Part shown: positions 24,311 to 64,000 of the stretch, piece by piece | Layout of the letters: every line of letters begins with the position of its first letter | Numbering within the stretch: the first letter of the stretch is position 1 | Origin: Candidatus Krumholzibacteriota bacterium | GTDB lineage: Bacteria; Krumholzibacteriota; Krumholzibacteriia; Krumholzibacteriales; Krumholzibacteriaceae | Assembly (NCBI GenBank): GCA_016933255.1 | Contig: JAFGBF010000008.1 | Span: forward strand, 7,772 to 71,771 | DNA length: 64,000 nt | Direction: 5' to 3' | Translations under genes and position numbers: made by a program | Notes under the pieces: generated by a model | Databases searched by the model: none | Seen by the model: only the letters and a program-made list of their open reading frames with translations | What the model was told of the DNA's origin: nothing

Positions 24311-24943
24311 GTGTCAGACACGAAAAGATACGTCTCTCTGGCTTTGCTGTTCGTCCTGGTCTTTGCCGGTTGTAAGGTGGTCGATACGCAGAAAAAGGAC
24401 CTTGCGCTGCAGGAAATGGATGCACTCGAAGAGAAGTATGTCGGGAAAAAAGCGTGGACAAGGTCCCTGCTTGTCAATATTGAGACAGATAAAAGAGTAG
24501 ATCAGCAATCGATAACGATCATAGACAGGGATGTCGAGGTAAAGGTCCTAGATCTTGATATGCACTGGAACGGTGCTGTCACAGTAAAGGGACCGGACAG
24601 AAAAGTCGTAAGACACGCCCTTAATGTTGAAAGGCCGATGACGATCGAGTCTTATGAGGAAGCCTTGAGCAGGGCTCTCTGGTTTAAGAAACCGGAATAC
24701 CGCTATAGGATGAATCTCAGGAAGTACGGGAAAAAGATGGCGAAGGCTATCGCAAATCATGAGTTGTTCAAGGGGATGGATATGGGGGCAGCTCTCGAGT
24801 CCTGGGGATACCCGAACGACAGGAACCAGAACGAGATCGGCGGTATTATGCAGGAACAGTGGATATATAAAGATCCCCGCGACAGGACGAAAAAACGTTT
24901 CATATACTTGAAGGATGGACTGGTGGACAGCTGGGACGAATAA
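24311..24943 (+). CDS. Lipoprotein with C-terminal SmpA/OmlA (BamE-like) domain
   Basis: GTG start after AAGGAGG. Lipobox LVFAGC. The C-terminus 'FKGMDMGAALESWGYPND...EQWIYKD...RFIYLKDGLVDSW' follows the BamE-fold consensus (GMT..V..LG.P...W.Y....F.F..G.L..W). Confidence 0.5.
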   Translation: MSDTKRYVSLALLFVLVFAGCKVVDTQKKDLALQEMDALEEKYVGKKAWTRSLLVNIETDKRVDQQSITIIDRDVEVKVLDLDMHWNGAVTVKGPDRKVVRHALNVERPMTIESYEEALSRALWFKKPEYRYRMNLRKYGKKMAKAIANHELFKGMDMGAALESWGYPNDRNQNEIGGIMQEQWIYKDPRDRTKKRFIYLKDGLVDSWDE

Positions 24944-29516: not shown

Positions 29517-29559
29517 TGCGGGGAACCTTTCGGAAGAAATGGAAATAACAAGCAGATAC

Positions 29560-29589
29560 TTGTAATCATAAGGCAGTCTATGGTATAAT
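29560..29589 (+). promoter_or_regulatory. Promoter with extended -10 (TTGTAA-18-TGGTATAAT) for the small secreted protein gene
   Basis: Consensus TATAAT with an upstream TG dinucleotide. In the divergent region shared with the EamA gene. Confidence 0.5.
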
Positions 29590-29644
29590 ATACCTATTCA
29601 AGATCCAAGGACAACATCTTTTGGATATACAACATGAAAGGGTG

Positions 29645-29977
29645 ATGGCGATGGTTAAACGTTTGATCCTGGTCTTGGTTCTGGTTTCTTTTCTGGCAGC
29701 GGCGGCGGAGGCAGTTCCGGTTTATCGGGGAAAAAGGGGGCGCAGCTGTCTGCGGCATTGCCTCCTCAGTTCCAGGCTTACCTCCGATAAATTGGCTACA
29801 TACGAGACTTATGGATATCCTGTCCACCGTATCCGTGTCAACGGATACGGCAGGGTCCTCGAACACTGGACCTATTATGAGATAGGACGGGAATTCATAT
29901 TTGACGAAGATTCGAAGCTGGTCAAGGTGAATAAATTTTGGCCTGAGGACAAAAGAGAGCGTTTTAACAGGCGCTAG
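29645..29977 (+). CDS. Small secreted protein of unknown function (about 90-aa mature form, CxxxC)
   Basis: ORF 29621..29977 (TTG). ATG 29645 or 29651 gives the signal peptide MAMVKRLILVLVLVSFLAAAAEA. A strong promoter lies upstream and a terminator downstream. Confidence 0.45.
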   Translation: MAMVKRLILVLVLVSFLAAAAEAVPVYRGKRGRSCLRHCLLSSRLTSDKLATYETYGYPVHRIRVNGYGRVLEHWTYYEIGREFIFDEDSKLVKVNKFWPEDKRERFNRR

Positions 29978-30087
29978 TTCTGCGCTGACCGGTATTGCGG
30001 GGAGAGTGAAGTGGTTTGATCACCTCACATTGGGGAAGTGCGTGCGCGAGGATAAAGGTTCCTGTGTTCGCCTTTTCCTATTTTCCC

Positions 30088-30137
30088 TCCGGGTCGGACC
30101 CTGTACTGCAGCCGCAGGGGAAGGCCCGGATTTTTTT
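30088..30137 (+). terminator. Candidate intrinsic terminator after the small secreted protein gene
   Basis: TCCGGGTC...GGCCCGGA outer stem enclosing a CTGCagccGCAG sub-hairpin, followed by 7 T. Confidence 0.45.
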
Positions 30138-30283
30138 ATCTTCAGATTTCTGCTTTTTTGTTGCCGATTCCCGGCGAAACTGATTGAAAATATCAGGTAA
30201 AGTTGATATATTAAGCCGAGTTTTGTTCCGCTGTTATTGAGTGTTTTTTAATGTGTTGCAGTTATATAAATTAAGATTGCGAG

Positions 30284-36297: not shown

Positions 36298-37278
36298 TCA
36301 GTCTCCGTGTTTCGGATCGTCGGTAAGCAGAAGTGAATCGATGACCGTGCTGGTCAACAACCTTCCTATTTTCATCTTTCCACACCAGACTTCGTTTATG
36401 ATCCGGTCTCCCGTAGCTATAGTAAAATGTATGGGGTCGTCGAAATTAGCCCGGTCGATCGTTATCTCGTTTACGAAATCGTAGTCGTAGACATTTACTC
36501 CGAGTTCGAAGAGATCTTTCCTGAAGCGGTTCATATCAGCGGTCAATCCGTAATCGGCTACACGGGCCTGCATCTCTATATGATGCGGTACGATAATAAA
36601 AGTGATTTCCGTTCCATTCTTTTTTGCATGTCTGACGACCCGTTTCATCTCGTCATAAAGGGTCTCGGGGTAACTGAATTTTCCGTAATGATCGTTTGCC
36701 TTGACCTGAATGTTCCAGTCCCAGAACTTTTCTCTGGTCATAGGGGGAGTTGTGGAGACAGCTGGCGAATTCTGAATATAAGCCTTGGTAACGAGCCAGC
36801 ATGTTTCAGCTACACTTCGATCAAATATATAGAATAGAGGGTTATTCAGGATTCCTTCGGCGCCTTTTACCCTGTCGGCATAGGCAAACTTGTTGAACAT
36901 ATTGAAATTCAGGATAAAAAACACCTTGTCCGGCTGTTTTATCCTGGAGGCGAACCAGTACAATTCAAAAGACTCGTTTAACTTGAGGGCATTCGAATTT
37001 AAGAGAAAATAGTCATCACCTGTGATTTTTTCTATTTGAGCAATCTTCAGATTGTAGCTTCTCGAATCACCAATGGTCAGATTGTCGCTGGGATCGTGCT
37101 TGTACTGGATCATATTGAACATCAATCGGTTGAGCGGCTTTGCATTTCTCAGCTTCACTCTGTCCGGAATCAGAGACGAGACGTTGAAGTAGTTGAAAGG
37201 GTCTATGACCATTACAATCCCTGCCCAGAGCAGGAAAGGGATCAAGAATATAGATGCTTTGATCAGAAATTTCTTCAT
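36298..37278 (-). CDS. Membrane-anchored SGNH-like acyltransferase partner (DltD/AlgJ/PatB-like)
   Basis: N-terminal TM anchor. A 'LTIGDSRSY' GDS(x) block I motif. It sits 10 nt downstream of the MBOAT gene on the same strand. Confidence 0.45.
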   Translation of the reverse strand: MKKFLIKASIFLIPFLLWAGIVMVIDPFNYFNVSSLIPDRVKLRNAKPLNRLMFNMIQYKHDPSDNLTIGDSRSYNLKIAQIEKITGDDYFLLNSNALKLNESFELYWFASRIKQPDKVFFILNFNMFNKFAYADRVKGAEGILNNPLFYIFDRSVAETCWLVTKAYIQNSPAVSTTPPMTREKFWDWNIQVKANDHYGKFSYPETLYDEMKRVVRHAKKNGTEITFIIVPHHIEMQARVADYGLTADMNRFRKDLFELGVNVYDYDFVNEITIDRANFDDPIHFTIATGDRIINEVWCGKMKIGRLLTSTVIDSLLLTDDPKHGD

Positions 37279-41245: not shown

Positions 41246-43825
41246 CTATTCTATCACAATAATTCCCATCTCGACACCCTGATAGATATCATCATCGGTG
41301 AAAAGATCGGAGAGGGTGTAATTAGGATACTGCGTTCTGTGCGACAGTCTGACAGCTACCTCGTATTTACCTGCTTTAATATCTTCCGGTATCGGGATCG
41401 CCACCTTTTCAGCGACTACCCTGCCGATAGGCCATTTGTCAGGAGGAAACAGTCCATTGAAGGGAATGAAACCGGACCTGAACCTGTACCGCTTATCATC
41501 TCTGGCTTCGAGGATCTTTCTGTAGATCTTTCCATATGACTTTCTGAAGAGGCGGCCTTTGTCGAACTGAGTGTTGAATCTTACATATGCATAGTATCCT
41601 TTTGGATCACAACCTGAAACAGCGATCCATTCTATCGTCAATTCAAGGATATCACCACGCTTGACGACCTGCCGGCAGATCACATCTTTTATATATATCC
41701 CTTCTTCACCCGATTCTTTTAGAAGAAGCGATTGATCGGCTGTTATCCTTGGCCACTCGGACTCTTCAGTGGCTGACCGCTCTTTTTCCCTGAAATCGCT
41801 GCCTAGTCTGTAGATAGAAAGTGATCTGTGCGAGTAAAGTTTCTCGAATCCGGACGCGCCTGACAGGAGCGAATCGGTACGCGTGAAAGACTCGATGTCC
41901 GGTTTCCAGAAAACTGGCTGGACCGAATCGGGAATGCGGCCGTTAATAACGATATATTCAGAACGATATTTTTCCATCAGGCCTGCGATATCTCCGGGCG
42001 TGCCTGCAAACTGGAATATTTCCCTGCTGTCGAGTATTCTTTCCAGCGCTGTCGAGTCGTTGGGGATCGAATGCTGATCGAGGGTGCAGATGACAAACTG
42101 ATCGGCAAAGGCGGGGATCGAATAGCTTGTTACCGGATCTGAAACGATAATGCTGCCCGGCGGGATCAGATTATTGAGGGCATCATACATATCATTCAGA
42201 TCATATGCGGTCTCCTCGCCGCGGTCTCTGTAAGTGAAGCTTGCCGGATAACTGTAAAATGTAGATCCGAGGACAGCTGTGATGAAGATCCACCCGGTGA
42301 TCAGGCCTGTTCTGGAGATATTGCCGCTTATCCCCCTGGTTCTGTTCCATAACGATACTAAAAGGACCGAAGCGATTATCGACGACGGTACCGCGAATTC
42401 CATGCGAAGAAGCAGGTATGAGATCTTCTTCATCAAAAAGGGAACCCAGAGAGGATTGAATACAAGTATAAGTGTTGCAATTACTCCGCAAAGGAGCAGT
42501 CTGAGCGACAGGTCTTCAGCAGATTTTTTCCAAAGGACGAATATCGCTGCAATCGAGATAATGAAGAGCGAACCGGCCGACTGATAAAAGACGACAGGAT
42601 TAAGTACCGCCAGCCGTTCTGTCAGGTGAAGAAGACCCTGTGTATGCGTGTGAAGGATATTTGCCGGGGCATAATCGCGGATATACCTCAGAAGCAGGTA
42701 GGGCAGGTTTATCCCTATAACTGCTGCTGCAGCGGCGGGGATATTTACCATCCATAGCCGAGACCTGTCTTTTATGGATCTCATGAAGGATGCGGATACT
42801 GCGAATATAAAGATCAGGAATCCTGATATCAGAAGATGCCCGATATGTGTTCCCGTACCGCAGAAAGAGGCTATCGCCAGCAATCCAAGATAGAATATGC
42901 TTCCAGTCTTAAGGTATAGAAGAAGTGCCGAGATAAAGATGACTGTGAATATCTTTCCGAACGGAAAACTGTAAGCGACCGTGATCAGCTGATGGCCGGT
43001 CAGCCCGCCGTGGTAAAAAAACAGAAAGATAAGAGATGACAGTAACCCTATAGCCTGGGATCGAAAGAGAAGAAGGCAGGAGCAATAAAGGGAAAGCAGG
43101 ATGAATATCGCACCGGTGATCGATATCAACGGCCATATCGGCAGCGTGTCGATCCTCCCTGTGAGAAGGTTGATCGTCCCCCACATCGCGTGATAAAGCC
43201 CTTTCCTGATATCGCGGGTCATCTCCCCGCCATTGCTGTAGAGAAACTCGGAGGGAAAGGCCTCATGTGACCTGGAGACCGTCCTGATATAGGCGATCCC
43301 ATCCTGAGAATCGCCGGTATAGAGGATCGGGTCTTCGTAATAGATCAGAAGAGCAGTTATCGATATGAATATTATCACCATCAGGATGGCGACCGAGACG
43401 GGGGTATATACATTAGGAGGTGTTTTATATTCAGAAGAACCTGTTTCCCCGCCGCCGATCGACTGACGAATCACCAGGACAAGAAACCCGGTCAGCGGAA
43501 TAAAGATCCCGATCCACTTTATATCCCACCTGAATATCGCAAAAATGATCAGATAGAGATAAAAGACAGCTGTTCCTGTCAGGAAAGAAAAGAGGATCCT
43601 GAAAAAGACCGATATTTTAGCGAAGAAGGCCCTGAATATGATATCTCCTGGAATCATCACCATTGTAAGGAAAAAGAAGATGAAAAGGATTCTGTGGAAA
43701 GGGAATGAAGGAGCGGTCCGGAGCGCGGCAAGGTGCAGGATTATGATCAGGCCGGTGATCATCGAACTGGCTGATATTCGGCCGAGGGGGGGGATTCTTT
43801 TGTCTGTACCCTGTGTTGCGTTCAT
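41246..43825 (-). CDS. Large polytopic membrane protein (~13 TM) with a ~350-aa C-terminal extracytoplasmic domain. Candidate GT-C-like glycosyltransferase or polymerase
   Basis: ORF 41246..43873. The second ATG (43825, MNATQG...) has a GGGAGA SD 6 nt upstream. No recognisable catalytic motif could be assigned by eye. Confidence 0.5.
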   Translation of the reverse strand: MNATQGTDKRIPPLGRISASSMITGLIIILHLAALRTAPSFPFHRILFIFFFLTMVMIPGDIIFRAFFAKISVFFRILFSFLTGTAVFYLYLIIFAIFRWDIKWIGIFIPLTGFLVLVIRQSIGGGETGSSEYKTPPNVYTPVSVAILMVIIFISITALLIYYEDPILYTGDSQDGIAYIRTVSRSHEAFPSEFLYSNGGEMTRDIRKGLYHAMWGTINLLTGRIDTLPIWPLISITGAIFILLSLYCSCLLLFRSQAIGLLSSLIFLFFYHGGLTGHQLITVAYSFPFGKIFTVIFISALLLYLKTGSIFYLGLLAIASFCGTGTHIGHLLISGFLIFIFAVSASFMRSIKDRSRLWMVNIPAAAAAVIGINLPYLLLRYIRDYAPANILHTHTQGLLHLTERLAVLNPVVFYQSAGSLFIISIAAIFVLWKKSAEDLSLRLLLCGVIATLILVFNPLWVPFLMKKISYLLLRMEFAVPSSIIASVLLVSLWNRTRGISGNISRTGLITGWIFITAVLGSTFYSYPASFTYRDRGEETAYDLNDMYDALNNLIPPGSIIVSDPVTSYSIPAFADQFVICTLDQHSIPNDSTALERILDSREIFQFAGTPGDIAGLMEKYRSEYIVINGRIPDSVQPVFWKPDIESFTRTDSLLSGASGFEKLYSHRSLSIYRLGSDFREKERSATEESEWPRITADQSLLLKESGEEGIYIKDVICRQVVKRGDILELTIEWIAVSGCDPKGYYAYVRFNTQFDKGRLFRKSYGKIYRKILEARDDKRYRFRSGFIPFNGLFPPDKWPIGRVVAEKVAIPIPEDIKAGKYEVAVRLSHRTQYPNYTLSDLFTDDDIYQGVEMGIIVIE

Positions 43826-44124
43826 TCTGGATCTCCCGTTGATACTCAATCTCCTGTAACATGCTGCAGGCATACCGGTTCAGCAGTCAGTTCCGGCAAG
43901 CATATAACTTGCCACAAGATCTTGCTATCATTAAATCGTACTTTGCCGGGGGTTTCTTAAAAACAGGTGATGCGGGATCCCGCGATTTTTATTGTCACTA
44001 CGGCGCATGAAGGTCGTTATTGACTCTGGAGATGATATAGTCTTAGTATATCCGGTGGTCCAGCGCCCCGACTGTCAATAGTCGAAGAATACCGTTTGAC
44101 AAAGCCAGTGAAAGGTTACGATCG

Positions 44125-47804: not shown

Positions 47805-49004
47805 TTGAGAAGGTACTTAATAATTACGGTTATTTTGGCGATGATTGCCATGGCTGCGGTCTTTTCCTGCTGCAGTTCCGATCCCGAGGGACCTGTGGCA
47901 TCTGTTTTCATAGAAGATGGATCGTACCCTTCGGATGCAGGCGAGACGGTGCGGTATGTCAATACGCTGAACAATGTTACAGCCGTCGATGTTCCGGTGG
48001 GGATAGGGAAGTCGTCCCTTTTGAGGCTCGGTGAGACAGAAGGAATACGGTTTGAATCGATCCTGATGAGATTTGATTTTGATTCGATAGGCAATTATGC
48101 GGATCTGACAGTCGATTCGGTCTATCTGGATCTTCCGGTTACCATTGTTCAGGACACTCTTTTTCACCTGAAGGTGACTTTCAACGAACTTCTTGAGGAT
48201 TTCAGTGATGAGGATACGATCACCGCTATCCCCTCTTTTGATCCTGATCCTGTTTTGGGAGCGAATGGAGAGACTGTAAGGGATATTAATATCGAAAGAG
48301 TCCGGTTCAGTATCGATGAGGCGATGGTCCAGGGATGGATCGATGGGGGGATCCCCTGGCAGTACGGCATAGCTGTAAACTGGGCGGAAGAACCTGATAG
48401 TTCGGGATTGATCGAGATGTATTCAGAAAATTATGGGTCCGATCCTCCTGTTCTGAAGGTGATCTTCACCGATGAGAGCTCCGCGGTCTTCCCGGTGGTG
48501 GAGGACTATGTCGTCACCTCCTTCAGTGGTGACGGACTCGATTGCGTAGGGGGAGTCGCTATGAGGCTGTTATTTGAATTCGGCCTTGAGGATCTTCCTG
48601 AAGACGCGATGATTCAATATTCAGCTCTTGTCCTGCATACAGACGGAGGAAAAGGGCTCGGGGCGACCGGTGGAGACATCCTTCTCGGGTTGACTTCCGA
48701 TTTTATATTTTATCTTTATACGCCGGATTCTCCTGATATTTATGATCCCGGATTCCTTGAGGGAACAGGTGTCGCAGCTAATCTGTTTCTCGCCACTATG
48801 TCGGCCGAGGTACGGATTCCTCTTGTTGGATTTACACTCGATCTTCATGCGGGAAAGAGAGAGAATACCGGGTTGGTCCTGCAGTCGAACCAGGAAAACT
48901 CCCGTTTTCAGAGGGCGAGTTTCTATGATATGGCTGCCGGGGATTCATTAAGACCCTATATAGAGGTAGTTTATACCCTTCCAGCGGATTTTTCCGGAGA
49001 GTAG
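47805..49004 (+). CDS. Acidic lipoprotein or secreted protein of unknown function
   Basis: TTG start. Signal or lipoprotein peptide 'MRRYLIITVILAMIAMAAVFSCCSS'. Rich in D/E. Its stop abuts the next gene's start (TAGATG). Confidence 0.5.
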   Translation: MRRYLIITVILAMIAMAAVFSCCSSDPEGPVASVFIEDGSYPSDAGETVRYVNTLNNVTAVDVPVGIGKSSLLRLGETEGIRFESILMRFDFDSIGNYADLTVDSVYLDLPVTIVQDTLFHLKVTFNELLEDFSDEDTITAIPSFDPDPVLGANGETVRDINIERVRFSIDEAMVQGWIDGGIPWQYGIAVNWAEEPDSSGLIEMYSENYGSDPPVLKVIFTDESSAVFPVVEDYVVTSFSGDGLDCVGGVAMRLLFEFGLEDLPEDAMIQYSALVLHTDGGKGLGATGGDILLGLTSDFIFYLYTPDSPDIYDPGFLEGTGVAANLFLATMSAEVRIPLVGFTLDLHAGKRENTGLVLQSNQENSRFQRASFYDMAAGDSLRPYIEVVYTLPADFSGE

Positions 49005-50219
49005 ATGCAAAGAAAAACTTTTATAATATTTTTTACCGTGGTCACAGTTTCGCTCGTCGTAAGCGGGACAGCCTGTTCTCAGTCGGTCTTCGGTATGAAT
49101 TTTATCGGAGAACACAGGTTCGGAGGTAATGCCAGAACCGCTGCTCTCGGGTATTCCGGGATCGCCCTGACTGATACCAGCAGTGCGATCACAATGAACC
49201 CCGCCTCCCTTTCGGACCTCAGCCGGGTCACATTCTCTCTTTTCGAACTTCTAAGTTTCAGCAGGATAGAGCGTACAGATATTCAGTCGAACCGGACCAG
49301 GTTTCAGATCCCGTCTGCTGCGGTCGCGGTGCCTCTGCACGACGGGCTTGTTTTCAGCCTCGGCTACAGGACGAGGTTTGCCGGTAAGGATGATTTTTCA
49401 ATTCAGAGCGAGATCGAGGATCTTCCCGCTGTGAATGAAAATTACAAGCTGAACAGTTCTCTCTTTTCCGTTCCGTTTATTCTCGCCTGGAAACCGGTCG
49501 ACTGGCTGAGGGTTTCGGGAGAGTTCCAGCTTGAACGCGGCTCGATCAAGGATCAGGTCTCTGTCTCTATCGAGGATCCTCTGTACAGCACTGCGACATC
49601 GTCGCGAACGAGAAGCTTTTCATCAGGGTCATGGGCTGTTTCGATGCTGATGAGGGTCCATCCAAGGCTTTGGGTTGGTGGATCATACGACGAAAGTATT
49701 GATTACACAGTCAGCGAGATCACTGAATATTCCCTCGAGTCGCTGAATGAATCATCGACCTGGGATTTTTCACTTCCGGCGGCCTTCAGCGCAGGTTTCG
49801 CGGCCGGGGTGACAGATAGATGGTGGCTGACCGGCTCTTACTGGGAGCGCCAGGCTCCCGAACCGGACGGTTTTCCGCAGTTTGAAGGCGCTCTTGGAGA
49901 CGAAAATCTCTTTGCGGTCGGCGTGGAAAGAAGATCTGCAGCTGAGGGAGGGGCTATCTCAAGGATCCCTCTGCGCATCGGGTTCTACCGGAATCGCTGG
50001 CACATGGAATTTCCGCAGGGAGAACCTGTTGTTTCCAGTTTCTTTACCGTTGGATCGGGTTTTTCTGTTCCTGGTGGACCGGGAGATCTCGATCTTACAC
50101 TGGAATTCGGGAAGATAGGTTCCGTAGAGAATAACAAGATAGATGAAAAGGTATTTCGCCTCGGTATAAGCATTAATTTTTCTGAAGTCTGGTCGAGGCG
50201 AAAGATCGTCAGGCATTGA
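49005..50219 (+). CDS. FadL/PorV-like outer-membrane beta-barrel protein
   Basis: Signal peptide. N-terminal 'NARTAALGYSGIALTDTSSAITMNPASL' (FadL-family NPA hatch motif). Alternating amphipathic strands and a C-terminal '...RLGISINF' aromatic terminus. Confidence 0.5.
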   Translation: MQRKTFIIFFTVVTVSLVVSGTACSQSVFGMNFIGEHRFGGNARTAALGYSGIALTDTSSAITMNPASLSDLSRVTFSLFELLSFSRIERTDIQSNRTRFQIPSAAVAVPLHDGLVFSLGYRTRFAGKDDFSIQSEIEDLPAVNENYKLNSSLFSVPFILAWKPVDWLRVSGEFQLERGSIKDQVSVSIEDPLYSTATSSRTRSFSSGSWAVSMLMRVHPRLWVGGSYDESIDYTVSEITEYSLESLNESSTWDFSLPAAFSAGFAAGVTDRWWLTGSYWERQAPEPDGFPQFEGALGDENLFAVGVERRSAAEGGAISRIPLRIGFYRNRWHMEFPQGEPVVSSFFTVGSGFSVPGGPGDLDLTLEFGKIGSVENNKIDEKVFRLGISINFSEVWSRRKIVRH

Positions 50220-56630: not shown

Positions 56631-56942
56631 GTGTACGCAGTCATAGATCTGGCTGGCAAACAGTTTACGGTCAAACCGGAAGATGAGATCAAAGTTCCTC
56701 TTCTTGATGTGGAAGTGGGAAGTACGATACAGTGTGACAATGTGCTTCTGTATTCGGATGGAAGCGATATTCGCGTCGGCAAGCCGAATCTGGGTGATAT
56801 AAAGGTGACTGCGGAAGTTATCCGTCACGCAAGAGCCAAAAAGATCATCGTATTCAAGATGAAACGCAGGAAAAATTACCGCAGGAGAAACGGTCACCGC
56901 CAGCACTTTACTCAATTGAGAATAAAGGATATTACTGTCTGA
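56631..56942 (+). CDS. rplU: 50S ribosomal protein L21
   Basis: ORF track 56484..56942. GTG 56631 follows GGAGGTCAGG. 'MYAVIDLAGKQFTV' is the L21 N-terminus. Confidence 0.85.
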   Translation: MYAVIDLAGKQFTVKPEDEIKVPLLDVEVGSTIQCDNVLLYSDGSDIRVGKPNLGDIKVTAEVIRHARAKKIIVFKMKRRKNYRRRNGHRQHFTQLRIKDITV

Positions 56943-56963
56943 GCGGTTGGGGGGCTGATATTA

Positions 56964-57218
56964 ATGGCACATAAAAAAGGTGTGGGAAGTTCCAGAAACG
57001 GTCGTGACAGCGCCGGAAGAAGGCTCGGCGCCAAACGTACGTCAGGGCAGGATGTGCTGGCTGGAACAATACTCGTGCGGCAGCGCGGAGCGAAGATCCA
57101 TCCCGGAACCAATGTAGGTATAGGAAGCGATGACACTCTCTTTGCCTTGATCGACGGCCGTGTTCAGTTCGAGCGTTTCGGCCGGTCAAAGAAGAAAGTG
57201 AGCGTCTACGCAAGCTAG
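56964..57218 (+). CDS. rpmA: 50S ribosomal protein L27
   Basis: '[21 protein letters not shown]' is the L27 signature. Confidence 0.9.
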
Positions 57219-57258
57219 TTACAGTGGTCGCAGTGAGTATTCTGAAGATAGGTCTACA

Positions 57259-57301
57259 GGAACCTGATGAGACGCAAGTTTACATCAGGTTCTCTTTTTT
57301 T
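57259..57301 (+). terminator. Rho-independent terminator after rpmA
   Basis: 10-11-bp stem GGAACCTGATG / CATCAGGTTC, 13-nt loop, then TCTTTTTTT. Confidence 0.85.
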
Positions 57302-57365
57302 GTCTGACAAATCGCAGAATAGACAGTTATCAGACCATCGCCGAAGAAAGTGAAGCTTATCTTTA

Positions 57366-58490
57366 ATGATGAAAAAGAGTCGGGATAAACAGATCGCCAT
57401 CCTCCTGGCTGCGACCCTGCTGGCGGTATATTTCTACGGTCAGATCGATCATTCAGATCCGCAATTTAAAGATTGGGATTCGCATTATTATCTTAAAATA
57501 GCCGATGCATTCCCCAATATCGACGACTCCGCCATAAGGCCCTTCTCCTTTCGTCTTGCCGGCCCATTCATCGCCGGCGCGCTGCCGCTGGATCCGGCTG
57601 TCAGCTTTATGCTGCTCACGGTAGCCGGGTTGATCGTTACGGTGATCGGGTTTTATTTATTTCTGGTCTATCTCGGTGTAGAGTCGAACCTCGCGTTATT
57701 CGCATCTCTGTTATACATACTGAATAAACATTTCTTCGGATTCGTCTCCTGGAATTATTTTCACGTCAACGACATAATTATGAATATCGTGCTTTTGTCG
57801 TGTTTCTGGGCGATCTACGAGAGAAGATGGCTTCTTTTTGCTGTCGCCCTGTTGATAGGCAGCGCTACACGGGAGACATTTATCATCATGATCCCGACGG
57901 GACTCGTCTATCTGCTATTTGATTCAAAAAACAGATCTGATATCTGGAGGCTGCTCGTATCATCGGCGCCTGCTATCCTTTTGTTTCTTCTGATCAGGAT
58001 GCTTATAACACCGGAAAATGGCAGGATGTTGATCGCTTCACTTTCTGATAACTATACCAAGTTATTCCGGGTGGGAGGGATATACCATCAATTGATCAAT
58101 CCTTTCGTACCCCTTACGATGATCCCTGTTATTTATTTCAAAGAGACTTACAGATTCTTCCGCGGCAGGCTGCACATGCTTGCCTATCTGCTGTTGATAT
58201 TTATTGCCTCGCTTTTTGGTGAAAACAATGAGAGATTGATCCATCCGGGGTTCATAGTCTTCTTTTATCTGCTTGCATCGATCATTGGCGCCCGTATTGA
58301 ATCAAGGCTGATGAGAGCGGTGATACTCGCCGCCGCTGTCCTCGGGAGCCTGCACTATCTTATCGCACGGTTCCCACTCCCTTCACGCGATTTTACGATC
58401 ATCACTTCGGGAGGAGGGGCGGTTCTGCTCACCTTGATCCTTCTATGGTACAAATATCGTATTGGAAAAGGCCGGGCCGAGAGCGCGTGA
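57366..58490 (+). CDS. Polytopic integral membrane protein of unknown function
   Basis: 374 aa, about 10 TM. No motif recognised. Confidence 0.45.
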   Translation: MMKKSRDKQIAILLAATLLAVYFYGQIDHSDPQFKDWDSHYYLKIADAFPNIDDSAIRPFSFRLAGPFIAGALPLDPAVSFMLLTVAGLIVTVIGFYLFLVYLGVESNLALFASLLYILNKHFFGFVSWNYFHVNDIIMNIVLLSCFWAIYERRWLLFAVALLIGSATRETFIIMIPTGLVYLLFDSKNRSDIWRLLVSSAPAILLFLLIRMLITPENGRMLIASLSDNYTKLFRVGGIYHQLINPFVPLTMIPVIYFKETYRFFRGRLHMLAYLLLIFIASLFGENNERLIHPGFIVFFYLLASIIGARIESRLMRAVILAAAVLGSLHYLIARFPLPSRDFTIITSGGGAVLLTLILLWYKYRIGKGRAESA

Positions 58491-58571
58491 ACCCGATATC
58501 GGCGGAAACGCCTTAAAACGTTATCTGAAAAAGCGTTTAGTTATAACAAATATCTATACATCCAATTTGCA

Positions 58572-58600
58572 TTGAATAATCTATCGATTTGTGGTACAAT
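58572..58600 (+). promoter_or_regulatory. Promoter with extended -10 (TTGAAT-17-TGGTACAAT) for the disrupted type-IX-secretion cargo gene
   Basis: TGnTACAAT extended -10, about 60 nt upstream of ATG 58662. Confidence 0.45.
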
Positions 58601-58661
58601 GGGTTAGTTGTAATAATAACAGATTCTAAGGTTTAACTACGCACAAAACAGGGAGAACGCC

Positions 58662-59350
58662 ATGAATAAGAGGTTTCTTTTTCATGCTGTTTGCATGTCT
58701 GCAGTAATTTCTTTCTGGTCACTGCAAACAGTGTTTTAGCGCTTGAGCCTCTATTTTATTCTTCCTTGACATACGGTGTTGGTAATACACCCTATTCAAT
58801 CTGCGCGGCTTATCTGGATGGAGACGATGATCTTGATCTAGCTGTGGCTAATAGTTACAGTCACAACGTATCAGTTTTCTTTAACAACGGAGACGGTACC
58901 TACGCCGCGGCTGTGAATTATGGTGTTGGTGAGCAACCCCATTCAGTCTGCGCGGGAGATCTGAACGGAGGCGATGATATTGATCTGGTCGTGGCGAATT
59001 ATTTCAGTGACAACGTCTCGATTCTGATGAATCTTACTAATGTCTGTACGGATGTCCTATATATTCCGCTTGTTCCCGTAAACTTAGCATCGAATTACCC
59101 TAATCCATTTAATCCGGTTACGACTCTTAAATTCAACGTTCCACGAACTGGGCATTTTACTATTGCCGTGTATGATGTGACGGGACGAAAGGTGAGGGTG
59201 CTTGTTGACAGGGTTTTTCAGATGGGCGCCTTCGAGACGACTTGGAACGGCAAAAACACCGCCGGCGAATCTGACGGATCGGGTGTTTAATTTGCCCGAA
59301 TGACAGCATACGGCCATTCCGATGTTATAAAGATGATTTTTCTGCGCTAG
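58662..59350 (+). pseudogene. Disrupted type-IX-secretion cargo gene: FG-GAP-like repeats plus Por_Secre_tail C-terminal domain, with a frame break in the signal peptide and an in-frame TAA inside the C-terminal domain
   Basis: ATG 58662 has a GGGAGA SD and encodes MNKRFLFHAVCMSAVISFWSL..., then stops after 25 codons. The ORF-track frame (TTG 58691..59290) has no SD and carries the rest. The ORF ends '...TWNGKNTAGESDGSGV' at TAA 59288-59290. Translation continues in frame as 'FARMTAYGHSDVIKMIFLR', matching the sorting-domain tail consensus 'SGVYFYRL.....RKM.LL.'. Confidence 0.5.
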
Positions 59351-59485
59351 TACGGGTGGAGAACCTAGGAAAATCCCGCAAATAACCACTCCAGCTGACA
59401 AGAGGTTTGCATCCCCGGGCAAGTCCTTCTGGATTTATTTTAAAAGAGTGTTACAATACAAAAAAGTAAATAGGTATTCAGGAGG

Positions 59486-60148
59486 TTGATGATGATCATC
59501 AGATATCTCGGACATTCGGCGTTTGAGCTTCGTCTTGACGATCAGAGAAAGATAGTATTCGATCCTTACGAGGCAGGTTCATATGACGGAGCGGTCGGAT
59601 TCGGTCCGATCATGGAGAAATACGATATAGCCGTTGTCAGCCACGATCATCCCGATCATGCTTCGGCTGATGTGATCGCTTCTGCCGAAAATGTGGTAGA
59701 TAAAGCTGGAGAGCGCGATATCGGCGGGGTCAGGATCAGGTCGTACGGCGTCTTTCATGACGAGACATCAGGGAGCGAGAGGGGAAAGAACCTCGTTTCT
59801 ATAGTCGAGGCTGAAGGGTTGAGGATCGCGCACCTTGGTGATCTCGGACATATCGTTGATCCCGGGGATCTGCCGGAGCTTGAAGGTGTCGATGTTATCC
59901 TGATCCCTGTGGGCGGGCATTTTACGATCGATGCAGCGACTGCCGCTTCTATCGTAAAGAGATTCAGGCCGAAGATCGCCATTCCGATGCATTTCAAGAC
60001 AGAAAAGCTCGGTTTTCCTATCGCCGCGGTTGACGATTTTACCGCATTGATGGATAATGTCGAAGTCGCGGGCGGGAGTGAACTGGAGATATCCGGCTCT
60101 GCTCTTTCCGGTGCGAGCAAGGTCGTCGTGCTGGACCCCGCGCTTTAG
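59486..60148 (+). CDS. MBL-fold metal-dependent hydrolase
   Basis: The 'VVSHDHPDHAS' HxHxDH motif. Confidence 0.7.
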   Translation: MMMIIRYLGHSAFELRLDDQRKIVFDPYEAGSYDGAVGFGPIMEKYDIAVVSHDHPDHASADVIASAENVVDKAGERDIGGVRIRSYGVFHDETSGSERGKNLVSIVEAEGLRIAHLGDLGHIVDPGDLPELEGVDVILIPVGGHFTIDAATAASIVKRFRPKIAIPMHFKTEKLGFPIAAVDDFTALMDNVEVAGGSELEISGSALSGASKVVVLDPAL

Positions 60149-60153
60149 AAAGT

Positions 60154-61014
60154 ATGGAATGGAGGGAACGGATGAAAGAGCTCGAAGCGGCAAAGATCAC
60201 GGAAGTGGTTGCCCTCCTCTGCAAGGAGGCTAATTTCGAACTCGAAGATGATGTTCAGGATGCGCTGGAGAAGGCATTTGAAAAAGAGGAATCTCCAGCC
60301 GGAAAAGAAGTCCTTCGTCAGATAGTCGAGAACTCACGGATCGCGAGAAGCGAACAGATCCCGATGTGCCAGGATACGGGACTGGCGGTAATATTCGCCG
60401 AACTCGGACAGGATCTTCACATAACGGGCGGGGATTTTGAGACGGCGATCAATGAAGGCGTTAAAAACGGATATACAGATGGATACCTTCGCAAATCGTC
60501 TCTTGCCGATCCGATCAGGGGGGGGAACACGGGAGATAACACGCCTGCGGTCATACACCTGACTCTGGTTCCCGGCGACAGGCTCAAGCTCTGGATCGTC
60601 CCGAAGGGGGGCGGAAGCGAGAATATGAGTCGTATCGCGATGATGAAACCTGCCGACGGAGTAGAAGGCATAAAAAAATTCGTAGTGGACAATATAAGGG
60701 CGGCTTCGGGCAATCCATGTCCGCCAGTCATCGTCGGAATAGGAATAGGCGGGACATTTGAGAGATGCGCCCAACTGGCGAAAAAGGCTCTTCTCAGAGA
60801 GATCGGCAGCAAACATTCCGATCCATTCTACGCCGACCTGGAAGAGGAGCTGCTCGGGCTCGTAAATGATCTTGGTGTCGGTCCGATGGGTTTCGGAGGG
60901 ATAACCACCGCGCTGGCGGTCCATATAGAAGTGGCTCCGAGGCATATAGCTTCTTTCCCAGTTTCGATGAATCTGAACTGTCACGCGGCGAGGCATAAAT
61001 ATATCGAGCTGTGA
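60154..61014 (+). CDS. Fe-S hydro-lyase, tartrate/fumarate subfamily, alpha subunit (class I fumarate hydratase alpha)
   Basis: 'PMCQDTGLAVIFAELGQD' and 'VIVGIGIGGTFE'. Followed by the beta-subunit gene. Confidence 0.8.
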   Translation: MEWRERMKELEAAKITEVVALLCKEANFELEDDVQDALEKAFEKEESPAGKEVLRQIVENSRIARSEQIPMCQDTGLAVIFAELGQDLHITGGDFETAINEGVKNGYTDGYLRKSSLADPIRGGNTGDNTPAVIHLTLVPGDRLKLWIVPKGGGSENMSRIAMMKPADGVEGIKKFVVDNIRAASGNPCPPVIVGIGIGGTFERCAQLAKKALLREIGSKHSDPFYADLEEELLGLVNDLGVGPMGFGGITTALAVHIEVAPRHIASFPVSMNLNCHAARHKYIEL

Positions 61015-62509: not shown

Positions 62510-64000
62510 TTGGGCGAAAAGACAAAATATATCTTTGTCACAGGAGGGGTGGTTTCATCTCTTGGAAAAGGTATCGCGGCATCATCTCTTGGGCTTCTTC
62601 TCAAGCAGAGGGGCCTTAACGTAGTCCTCCAGAAATTCGATCCTTATCTGAACGTAGACCCTGGTACAATGAGTCCTTTCCAGCATGGTGAAGTCTTTGT
62701 GACTGATGACGGAGCGGAGACGGACCTTGATCTGGGACATTACGAGAGATTTATCGACCGCAGCCTCGGACAGAGGTCGAATGTCACGACAGGACAGGTA
62801 TACGAAGCGATCATCAACAGGGAAAGGGCGGGCGGATATCTTGGCAGGACGGTTCAGGTCGTCCCCCATGTGACCGATGAGATAAAGAGCCGTATCCTGA
62901 TGGCGGCAAAGAATGGAGAGGGTGTCGATGTCGTTATTACCGAGGTCGGCGGTACGACAGGCGATATCGAGGGGCTTCCATTTATCGAGGCTATCCGTCA
63001 GCTGCGTCTCGACCTCGGGCGCGAAAATGTCATCTATATCCATCTGACTCTGGTACCTTATATTAAAGCTGCCCAGGAGATAAAGACCAAACCGACCCAG
63101 CACAGCGTCAAGGGGCTGAGGGAGATCGGTATTCAGCCGGATATTCTTATCTGCAGGTCGGAAACCCCCCTTGATAAGGAAGTTCGCGCCAAGATCGCGC
63201 TTTTCTGCAGCGTCGAAGAGGAAGCAGTGATAGAGGCGATCGACGCAAAATCGATATATCATGTGCCTCTTCTCTTTCACGAACAGAACCTTGACGATAT
63301 CGTAGTTGAAAAGCTGGGTCTCGAGTGTCCTCCTCCCGATCTTTCCGAATGGGAGAGAATGGTCGAAAAGATCTTCACCGTAGAGGAGAATGTCAATATA
63401 GCGGTTGTCGGAAAATATATTCAGATAGTCGATGCCTACAAGAGTATCATAGAATCTTTTATACACGCCGGAGTCGCCAATGACGTAAAGGTCAGGATCA
63501 GATGGGTCGATGCTGAAAAGATAGAAGAAAAAGGTGCTGATGAATACCTTGAGGGAGTTGACGGCGTACTGGTCCCCGGAGGATTCGGCGACAGGGGAAT
63601 AAACGGGAAGATCGACGCTATCAGGTATGCCAGGGAAAATGGTATCCCCTTCCTCGGAATATGCCTGGGCCTTCAGTGTGCTGTCATAGAATTCGCGAGA
63701 AATGTCTGCGGGATTGAGGCTGGCAGCAGTGAATTCGAACCGGAATGCTCCGCTCCGGTGATAGATCTTATGCACGAGCAGAGAGGCCACTCGAAGATGG
63801 GCGGCACGATGAGGCTTGGCGCCTATCCCTGCCACCTTGAGAAAGATACTCTCGCCGAGAGGCTTTACGGGAGCAGTATCATCAGTGAACGCCACCGGCA
63901 CAGATGGGAAGTCAACAATGAATATCGTGATCTTCTCGAATCGAAGGGGCTCGTGATATCGGGACTTTCTCCTGACGGCCGCCTGGTCGAGATCGTCGAA
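62510..64000 (+). CDS. pyrG: CTP synthase (3'-partial, runs off the window end)
   Basis: Not in the ORF track because no stop falls inside the window. TTG 62510 gives '..[24 protein letters not shown]'. '[10 protein letters not shown]' and the GATase 'GICLGLQ' are present. The antisense ORF 62582..63901 is a shadow. Confidence 0.9.

Follow-up and report, generated by a model that had tools for sequence, protein, structure and literature searches.

What kind of gene lies at 58662-59350 on the forward strand of the DNA analysed here (a stretch of 64,000 nucleotides, called the window)? The source record gives Candidatus Krumholzibacteriota as the organism, and the sequence is part of a metagenome-assembled genome (MAG). 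At this locus the deposited annotation recognises only a 148-aa fragment with a GTG start, MBN2184298.1 (P0003), named 'VCBS repeat-containing protein'. [quoted passage not shown] Exactly these two lesions were found when the locus was compared with an orthologue (P0002, encoded on contig L002). We consider it very likely that this small surface-protein gene is an ordinary young pseudogene with two independent inactivating mutations. Of the two options in the earlier note, decay is favoured by a second assembly, by clean neighbouring genes and by the nature of the first lesion, which is the loss of a 4-nt repeat unit.

P0002 is an intact protein of 230 aa from an ENA contig of 807 bp (L002) and is 78% identical to the window gene over the full length. 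P0001 is the 199-aa open reading frame (ORF) of the locus itself, found on a 186-kb NCBI contig and on a Logan contig. A protein search revealed about 450 more distant proteins in which a signal peptide is followed by FG-GAP repeats (2 to about 8) and a sorting domain; the sources that are named are Krumholzibacteria, Zixibacteria, Ignavibacteria and similar MAGs. These FCB-type metagenomic FG-GAP/VCBS proteins with a type A sorting domain (P0002, P0004, P0016, P0024, P0028, P0054, P0078 and the approximately 450 others) have the same architecture as the window gene. They also share with it the signal peptide junction A-(F/L)EPLF, which recurs in many family members, and the tail YFARM...KMVLLR. 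Identity to the FG-GAP sorting-domain relatives other than P0002 is 40-50%. With two repeats the window gene is among the shortest members, and it is the only one seen here that carries a frameshift and a nonsense codon. Scans of genome and metagenome contigs with the restored protein found no second orthologue and returned distant relatives sharing the sorting domain only (Acidobacteriota, Ignavibacteriae and Rhodothermaceae MAGs and one JGI contig). The ancestral state described below was deduced from the single close orthologue (P0002/L002) together with the wider family. Comparison with orthologues had been suggested in the earlier note, and it pinpointed both lesions: the gene on L002 runs in a single frame, has TAC in place of the premature TAA and ends at the same stop.

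Judged from these relatives, the ancestor would have been an exported protein of about 230 residues with a Sec signal peptide, two FG-GAP/VCBS repeats (β-propeller blades), a short linker and a type A sorting domain of 88 residues. The start of such a gene is still recognisable. A Shine-Dalgarno sequence (GGGAGA, 58651-58656) is located five bases 5' of ATG 58662, and its counterpart on L002 is GGGGGA at the same position. The frame opened by this ATG reads MNKRFLFHAVCMSAVISFWSLQTVF and is then closed by TAG 58737-58739. This 5' remnant ORF of 25 codons (58662-58739) comprises the n-region and most of the h-region of a signal peptide (MNKRFLFHAVCMSAVISF), seven out-of-frame codons and the TAG, and its first 18 residues match P0002 (MNKRFLFHAVCLSAVISF). 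The ribosome-binding site, the start of the signal peptide and the stop after 25 codons had all been recognised in the earlier note, and the sequence bears them out. The 'strong promoter' proposed in the same place fared less well. A sigma-70-like match is indeed present at 58572-58600 on the forward strand (TTGAAT, a spacer of 17 nt and a TG-extended TACAAT), but its strength finds no statistical support: it agrees with the consensus at 9 of 12 positions, and the 1.3-kb region contained three such sites against 2.0 ± 1.1 in shuffled sequences. The match is a plausible promoter and not a significant one. Contig L002 begins downstream of this promoter-like site.

The remainder of the protein is encoded in the -1 frame, and the cause of the split is found at 58708-58715. 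Here the window has (TTTC)2 where the intact orthologue has (TTTC)3, a 4-nt deletion that shifts the reading frame by -1. In the alignment the window reads GCAGTAA----TTTCTTTCTGG and L002 reads GCAGTCATTTCTTTCTTTCTGA; in a longer view of the same junction (ATTTCTTTCTG in the window, ATTTCTTTCTTTCTG in L002) one TTTC unit is absent from the window. The earlier note had implied a change of a single nucleotide in a run of T residues, which the alignment with L002 corrects to four nucleotides, one complete TTTC unit. Reinsertion of TTTC gave a coding sequence of 693 nt, colinear with L002 across 230 codons with zero gaps and with the stop in the same position. The restored signal peptide, MNKRFLFHAVCMSAVISFFLVTANSVLA followed by LEPLF, has a charged n-region, a hydrophobic core of 17 residues and a V-L-A cleavage motif, and is probably cut before LEPLF, to judge from its n, h and c regions and from the conserved A-(F/L)EPLF junction. 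A joined N-terminal Sec signal peptide is thus continuous in the restored sequence and in P0002, and absent from the window copy owing to the 4-nt deletion. In the first lesion a (TTTC)3 tract at 58708-58715 has been shortened by one TTTC unit, presumably in a slipped-strand event. The body of the gene is thereby cut off from its ribosome-binding site, from the ATG and from the 18 initial residues of the signal peptide.

The -1 frame is open from 58670, and its first start codon is TTG 58691, which has no purine-rich stretch upstream. The body of the gene is therefore reachable only from a TTG without Shine-Dalgarno sequence, as had been stated before, and after the first lesion it would be translated, if at all, without a proper signal peptide. 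The residual ORF of 199 codons (58691-59290, forward strand) runs from this TTG to the premature TAA (...GESDGSGV); it is identical to P0001. It codes for the last part of the signal peptide, for the FG-GAP repeats and for a sorting domain cut short by the stop. The two FG-GAP/VCBS-type repeats, corresponding to two β-propeller blade units, occupy 58814-58993. They match PF13517 (FG-GAP_3) with 38.4 bits (cut-off 26.9) in two stretches covering residues 42-101 of the 199-aa ORF. Some leftover expression of this ORF from TTG 58691 may occur. Downstream of the original stop a weak terminator-like hairpin with a T-rich run is present (59415-59442; a 5-bp stem with three G-C pairs, then ATTTATTTTA), and such matches are near chance level, with two found and 1.2 expected.

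The second lesion lies in the sorting domain. TIGR04183 and PF18962 both match from residue 136 of the 199-aa ORF, and the part of the type A domain that is still translated (59096-59287) comprises β-strands 1 to 5 and two residues of strand 6. It is followed by the premature stop TAA (59288-59290), which stands in the SGVYF motif in place of the invariant Tyr. The earlier note had placed this codon exactly at the Tyr of the conserved SGVYFYRL tail, and this was confirmed by the family alignment, where all 55 of the 55 aligned members have Tyr in that column. Its proposal of a single change from TAY to TAA likewise agrees with L002, which has TAC. Beyond the TAA the frame stays open for 19 more codons (FARMTAYGHSDVIKMIFLR) and ends with TAG 59348-59350. 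This untranslated remnant and the original stop (59291-59350) correspond to strands 6 and 7, and the remnant aligns without gaps to YFARMETCGHKAVRKMVLLR and the stop of P0002. The homologous tail thus ends at the stop position of the orthologue, with the domain at the extreme C-terminus.

For profile searches a read-through construct was made in which the TAA was replaced by Tyr and the 19 downstream codons were added. With TIGR04183 (cut-off 23) the score rose from 20.2 bits for the whole protein as encoded to 30.2 bits with read-through; the isolated domain scored 23.0 bits as encoded and 33.4 bits with read-through. The matched part of the profile grew from positions 2-33 to 2-70 of 72. With PF18962 (cut-off 27) the corresponding values were 21.8 and 26.6 bits for the whole protein and 24.4 and 29.9 bits for the isolated domain. 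As encoded, the whole protein scored below the cut-off with both profiles and covered only profile positions 2-33 or 2-34. Since read-through raised both scores and coverage, the downstream codons represent the real end of the domain. The search of the read-through C-terminus proposed in the earlier note gave a clear TIGR04183 match (30.2-33.4 bits), and the extension to profile position 70 is in line with its view that the tail continues the consensus. A custom HMM built from the 55 family domains scored 80.7 bits for this domain and detected no second sorting domain or cargo gene in a six-frame translation of the 64-kb window.

An AlphaFold2 model was made of the intact orthologue (mean pLDDT 85; 85-97 in the sorting domain). 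The modelled strands of the sorting domain are 143-145, 155-161, 165-172, 178-187, 190-196, 209-217 and 220-228. Tyr211 of the orthologue sits in the sixth of these, and on this model the TAA would delete the last two of seven β-strands. The seven strands form an Ig-like β-sandwich resembling solved sorting domains. Foldseek matched the model to PorU (6za2, E 2.4e-5), to PorZ (5m11, 9.5e-5) and to the sorting domain that RemA contributes as the bound partner in a type IX complex (8gl6_D, target TM-score 0.62). It also matched the model to Ig-like domains of FlgD, and the FG-GAP part to the propellers of integrin alpha and the BBSome. By sequence, solved structures gave only marginal matches to FlgD and HBP35 with E above 0.1. 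The FlgD Ig-like domain (PF13860) has the same β-sandwich fold and was weakly matched with 20.9-24.3 bits, under the Pfam cut-off of 27. Unlike FlgD, the gene has no flagellar context in the window, and the match reflects the known kinship of the folds, not function.

What the lost strands mean for targeting can be judged from experiments on known cargo proteins. Secretion by the T9SS needs the last 13 residues and the lysines of motif E, and in HBP35 the last 22 residues are sufficient (PMC10202324). RgpB lacking only two C-terminal residues is stuck in the periplasm (PMC11285876). In the translated product of the window gene motifs D (the Gly-x-Tyr strand) and E (the terminal K-M/L-x-L-L-K/R strand) are both missing, because the TAA takes the place of the invariant Tyr and the last 20 residues are gone. 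The second lesion is a C-to-A change in the invariant Tyr codon at 59288-59290, converting TAC to TAA and stripping off these 20 residues, which form β-strands 6 and 7 of the seven-stranded sandwich, the region to which published work assigns the targeting signal. Each lesion by itself would probably be enough to block delivery to the cell surface, and the function of the gene has presumably been lost.

Comparison with L002 also indicated when the gene decayed. The ratio dN/dS was 0.17 in the signal peptide (amino-acid differences at 5 of 28 positions), 0.41 in the FG-GAP repeats and linker (35 of 114), 0.05 in the sorting domain before the TAA (3 of 68) and 0.47 in the 19 codons after it (8 of 19), and dS was about 0.4-0.6 in every segment. 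The low dN/dS and the even dS imply purifying selection during most of the time since the lineages split. The value of 0.47, which comes from 19 codons only, is a weak sign of relaxed selection and could equally stem from a more variable stretch of the domain. In a leave-one-out log-odds profile of the family the untranslated tail scored 30.2 bits against 31.3 bits for that of the intact orthologue, and only two of its residues are unusual and specific to the window (Ile in a column with Lys or Arg in 47 of 55 members, and Phe in one with Leu in 50 of 55). Since the tail scores like that of the intact orthologue, the inactivation is probably recent; an old pseudogene was considered and rejected on the same leave-one-out scores, by which the tail is no worse than the orthologue's. 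Gene conversion was considered for a 90-nt stretch of the sorting domain with 97-98% identity to the orthologue and was also rejected, the dS of the domain (0.43) being like that of the rest. Purifying selection and chance would be enough to produce such a stretch.

A tail as well kept as that of the intact orthologue is also what would be expected if the gene were intact in the organism and both lesions were sequencing or assembly artefacts. It might be argued further that the source is a MAG and that the indel falls within a short repeat, a type of sequence somewhat more prone to error. Nevertheless we regard this explanation as unlikely. A separate Logan assembly (run SRR13394437) contains a contig of 3,622 bp (L001) that is 100% identical to positions 56633-60254 of the window, both lesions included. 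The two assemblies were made separately and may share the same reads, and both might then contain the same systematic error of the reads or conceal an intact allele of low frequency. Typical long-read errors are homopolymer errors, which a 4-nt deletion and a C-to-A substitution do not resemble, and consensus at normal short-read depth clears random errors. The surroundings of the gene also speak against a high error rate. Under the standard code 51 long ORFs cover 87% of the window, and most of the 50 others show full-length matches to housekeeping Pfam families, including EF-G, RuvABC, QueA, Tgt, Ffh, TrmD, MurA, MurB, MnmA and the fumarase subunits. The immediate gene order is L21, L27, a membrane protein, the window gene discussed here, an MBL-fold hydrolase and fumarase. 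No other broken or split gene was found among these 50, which argues for a very low general error rate. If two lesions were scattered at random over the coding DNA of about 56 kb, the second would strike the same 0.69-kb gene with a probability of about 1%, whereas clustering in one gene is as predicted by the decay of a single dispensable gene. Rfam and tRNA scans of the window were empty.

Could the lesions be real and the locus nevertheless work? The TTTC tract might serve as a phase-variable switch, or a truncated FG-GAP product of 199 or 148 aa might have taken on a new intracellular or periplasmic role. The frameshift does lie in a tetranucleotide repeat, the two lineages differ in the copy number of this repeat, the 199-codon ORF is still open and the deposited annotation counts part of it as a gene. 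Yet known contingency loci have far longer repeat tracts than the two TTTC units here or the three in the orthologue, and Tandem Repeats Finder reported no tandem array in 58400-59500. Restoration of the frame would, moreover, leave the TAA, which removes the targeting signal. For a truncated product the difficulty is its expression and folding: TTG 58691 has no Shine-Dalgarno sequence of its own and is situated within the upstream ORF of 25 codons, which is translated from a good ribosome-binding site, and a two-blade FG-GAP fragment joined to five sevenths of an Ig-like sandwich would be unlikely to fold. A working locus of either kind therefore appears quite improbable. Fainter still is the prospect that loss of the gene was adaptive or switchable, with the TTTC tract toggling an exposed FG-GAP adhesin and the nonsense allele being a fixed escape from a phage or predator that used it as receptor. 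If true, this would imply a working T9SS in a phylum where none has been described.

Full expression by recoding, that is, a programmed -1 frameshift combined with read-through of the TAA or its reassignment to Tyr, was also considered, and its probability is close to nil. What invites the idea is that the TAA stands exactly at the Tyr position with an open and homologous frame downstream, and that the shift is -1 and occurs within a T-rich stretch. The orthologue, however, is encoded in a single frame with TAC, which shows that recoding at this site is not conserved. A slippery heptamer of the type X XXY YYZ is absent from the zero frame at 58700-58720, and the TAA is followed by T, a strong stop context in bacteria. 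TAA terminates six other long ORFs of the window, from which it follows that the code is standard, and no other gene with an in-frame TAA was found among the window's long ORFs. We know of no bacterial genetic code in which TAA specifies Tyr.

The preferred reading is thus that of a recently inactivated pseudogene, and it conforms to a familiar pattern. Bacterial pseudogenes that arise by a slipped-strand indel and a nonsense mutation look like the window gene in every respect: a short repeat unit is deleted and a nonsense codon has arisen by substitution of one base, while the gene is otherwise conserved and has an intact orthologue.

The remaining question is what the gene was before it decayed. 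The case that the restored gene encodes a type-IX-secretion-type cargo is supported by a predicted Sec signal peptide at its N-terminus, by FG-GAP/VCBS repeats and, at the C-terminus, by a sorting domain of type A. Like the known type A cargo proteins (RgpB, HBP35, PorZ and PorU of P. gingivalis, RemA of F. johnsoniae), it has an N-terminal Sec signal peptide and, at the extreme C-terminus, a domain of about 85 residues with the pattern NYPNPFN...SGVYF...KMxLL(K/R). Unlike them, the window copy can no longer produce the signal peptide or strands 6 and 7. In sequence, position and fold the restored gene conforms to a type A cargo, and the encoded product does not, because it is without motifs D and E and without a joined signal peptide. 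A further difference is the host: the window gene belongs to Krumholzibacteriota and not to Bacteroidota.

The earlier note had guessed at an FCB-like lineage, which agrees with the source record, since Krumholzibacteriota have been placed in the FCB superphylum (PMC10936416). They are absent, though, from the FCB phyla that have been listed as possible carriers of type IX systems (PMC11285876). Proteins of Krumholzibacteriota already bear the name 'T9SS type A sorting domain-containing' in NCBI. The statement that the organism encodes T9SS cargo holds insofar as a cargo-type gene is present, but it does not extend to a working T9SS: among the 51 long ORFs of the 64-kb window there was no match to the machinery components SprA/Sov, PorV, PorU, GldK/L/M/N or PorK/L/M/N. 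The ancestral protein was presumably exported as genuine cargo by a T9SS in this organism.

Beyond annotation the finding is of little importance, and its practical value is a corrected entry: the locus would be better described as a pseudogene of a 230-aa protein with a T9SS type A sorting domain. Whether the T9SS works in Krumholzibacteriota is not something that one cargo gene in decay can show. The gene does strengthen the case for type A sorting domains in this phylum, and it would justify a check for the secretion machinery across Krumholzibacteriota genomes.

The deposited annotation records the broken type-IX-secretion cargo gene only in part. MBN2184298.1, named 'VCBS repeat-containing protein', covers window positions 58844-59290 and is a fragment of only 148 aa with a GTG start; neither a pseudogene nor a sorting domain is flagged in the record.

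Within the sorting domain of this gene, 90 nt (59168-59257) are 97-98% identical to L002, the ENA contig carrying the intact orthologue, and this identity extends to the synonymous sites. Outside this tract the identity of the cargo gene to L002 is about 78%. Because the sorting domain as a whole has a normal dS of 0.43 in the same comparison, the tract may be explained either by chance or by a short recombination event.

The gene immediately upstream of the cargo gene (57366-58490, + strand) encodes a protein of 374 aa for which no Pfam match was found and whose sequence, judged by eye, is strongly hydrophobic. It is likewise present on L001, the Logan contig identical to this part of the window. 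Other open reading frames also lacked a Pfam match. Three of them, at 24311-24943 (+ strand, 210 aa), 36298-37278 (- strand, 326 aa) and 62582-63901 (- strand, 439 aa), had none at E <= 0.001, and the same was true of an ORF of 875 aa (41246-43873, - strand) whose neighbours are cell-envelope and polysaccharide genes (Polysacc_synt_3, MurB, MBOAT and glycosyltransferases). On the + strand, two ORFs that directly adjoin one another (47805-49004 and 49005-50219), each encoding about 400 aa, were also without a match; two TPR-repeat proteins are encoded just downstream, and the arrangement may represent an uncharacterised operon.

A stretch of 767 nt without a long ORF (29517-30283) separates the divergently oriented genes for an EamA transporter (- strand) and a class III aminotransferase (+ strand). 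An Rfam search of this stretch gave no match, and no Pfam match was found for an ORF of 118 aa within it (29621-29977). Across the entire window (1-64000) no tRNA genes and no Rfam families at the gathering threshold were found, despite the many translation and housekeeping genes encoded in these 64 kb (EF-G, Ffh, S16, L19, L21, L27, TrmD, RimM, Tgt, QueA and MnmA).

A sorting domain 46% identical to that of the cargo gene is located at positions 4001-4267 of contig JBLMZA010000054.1. The source MAG is labelled Acidobacteriota, which does not belong to the FCB group; the contig may have been binned wrongly, or the sorting domain may genuinely occur outside FCB.
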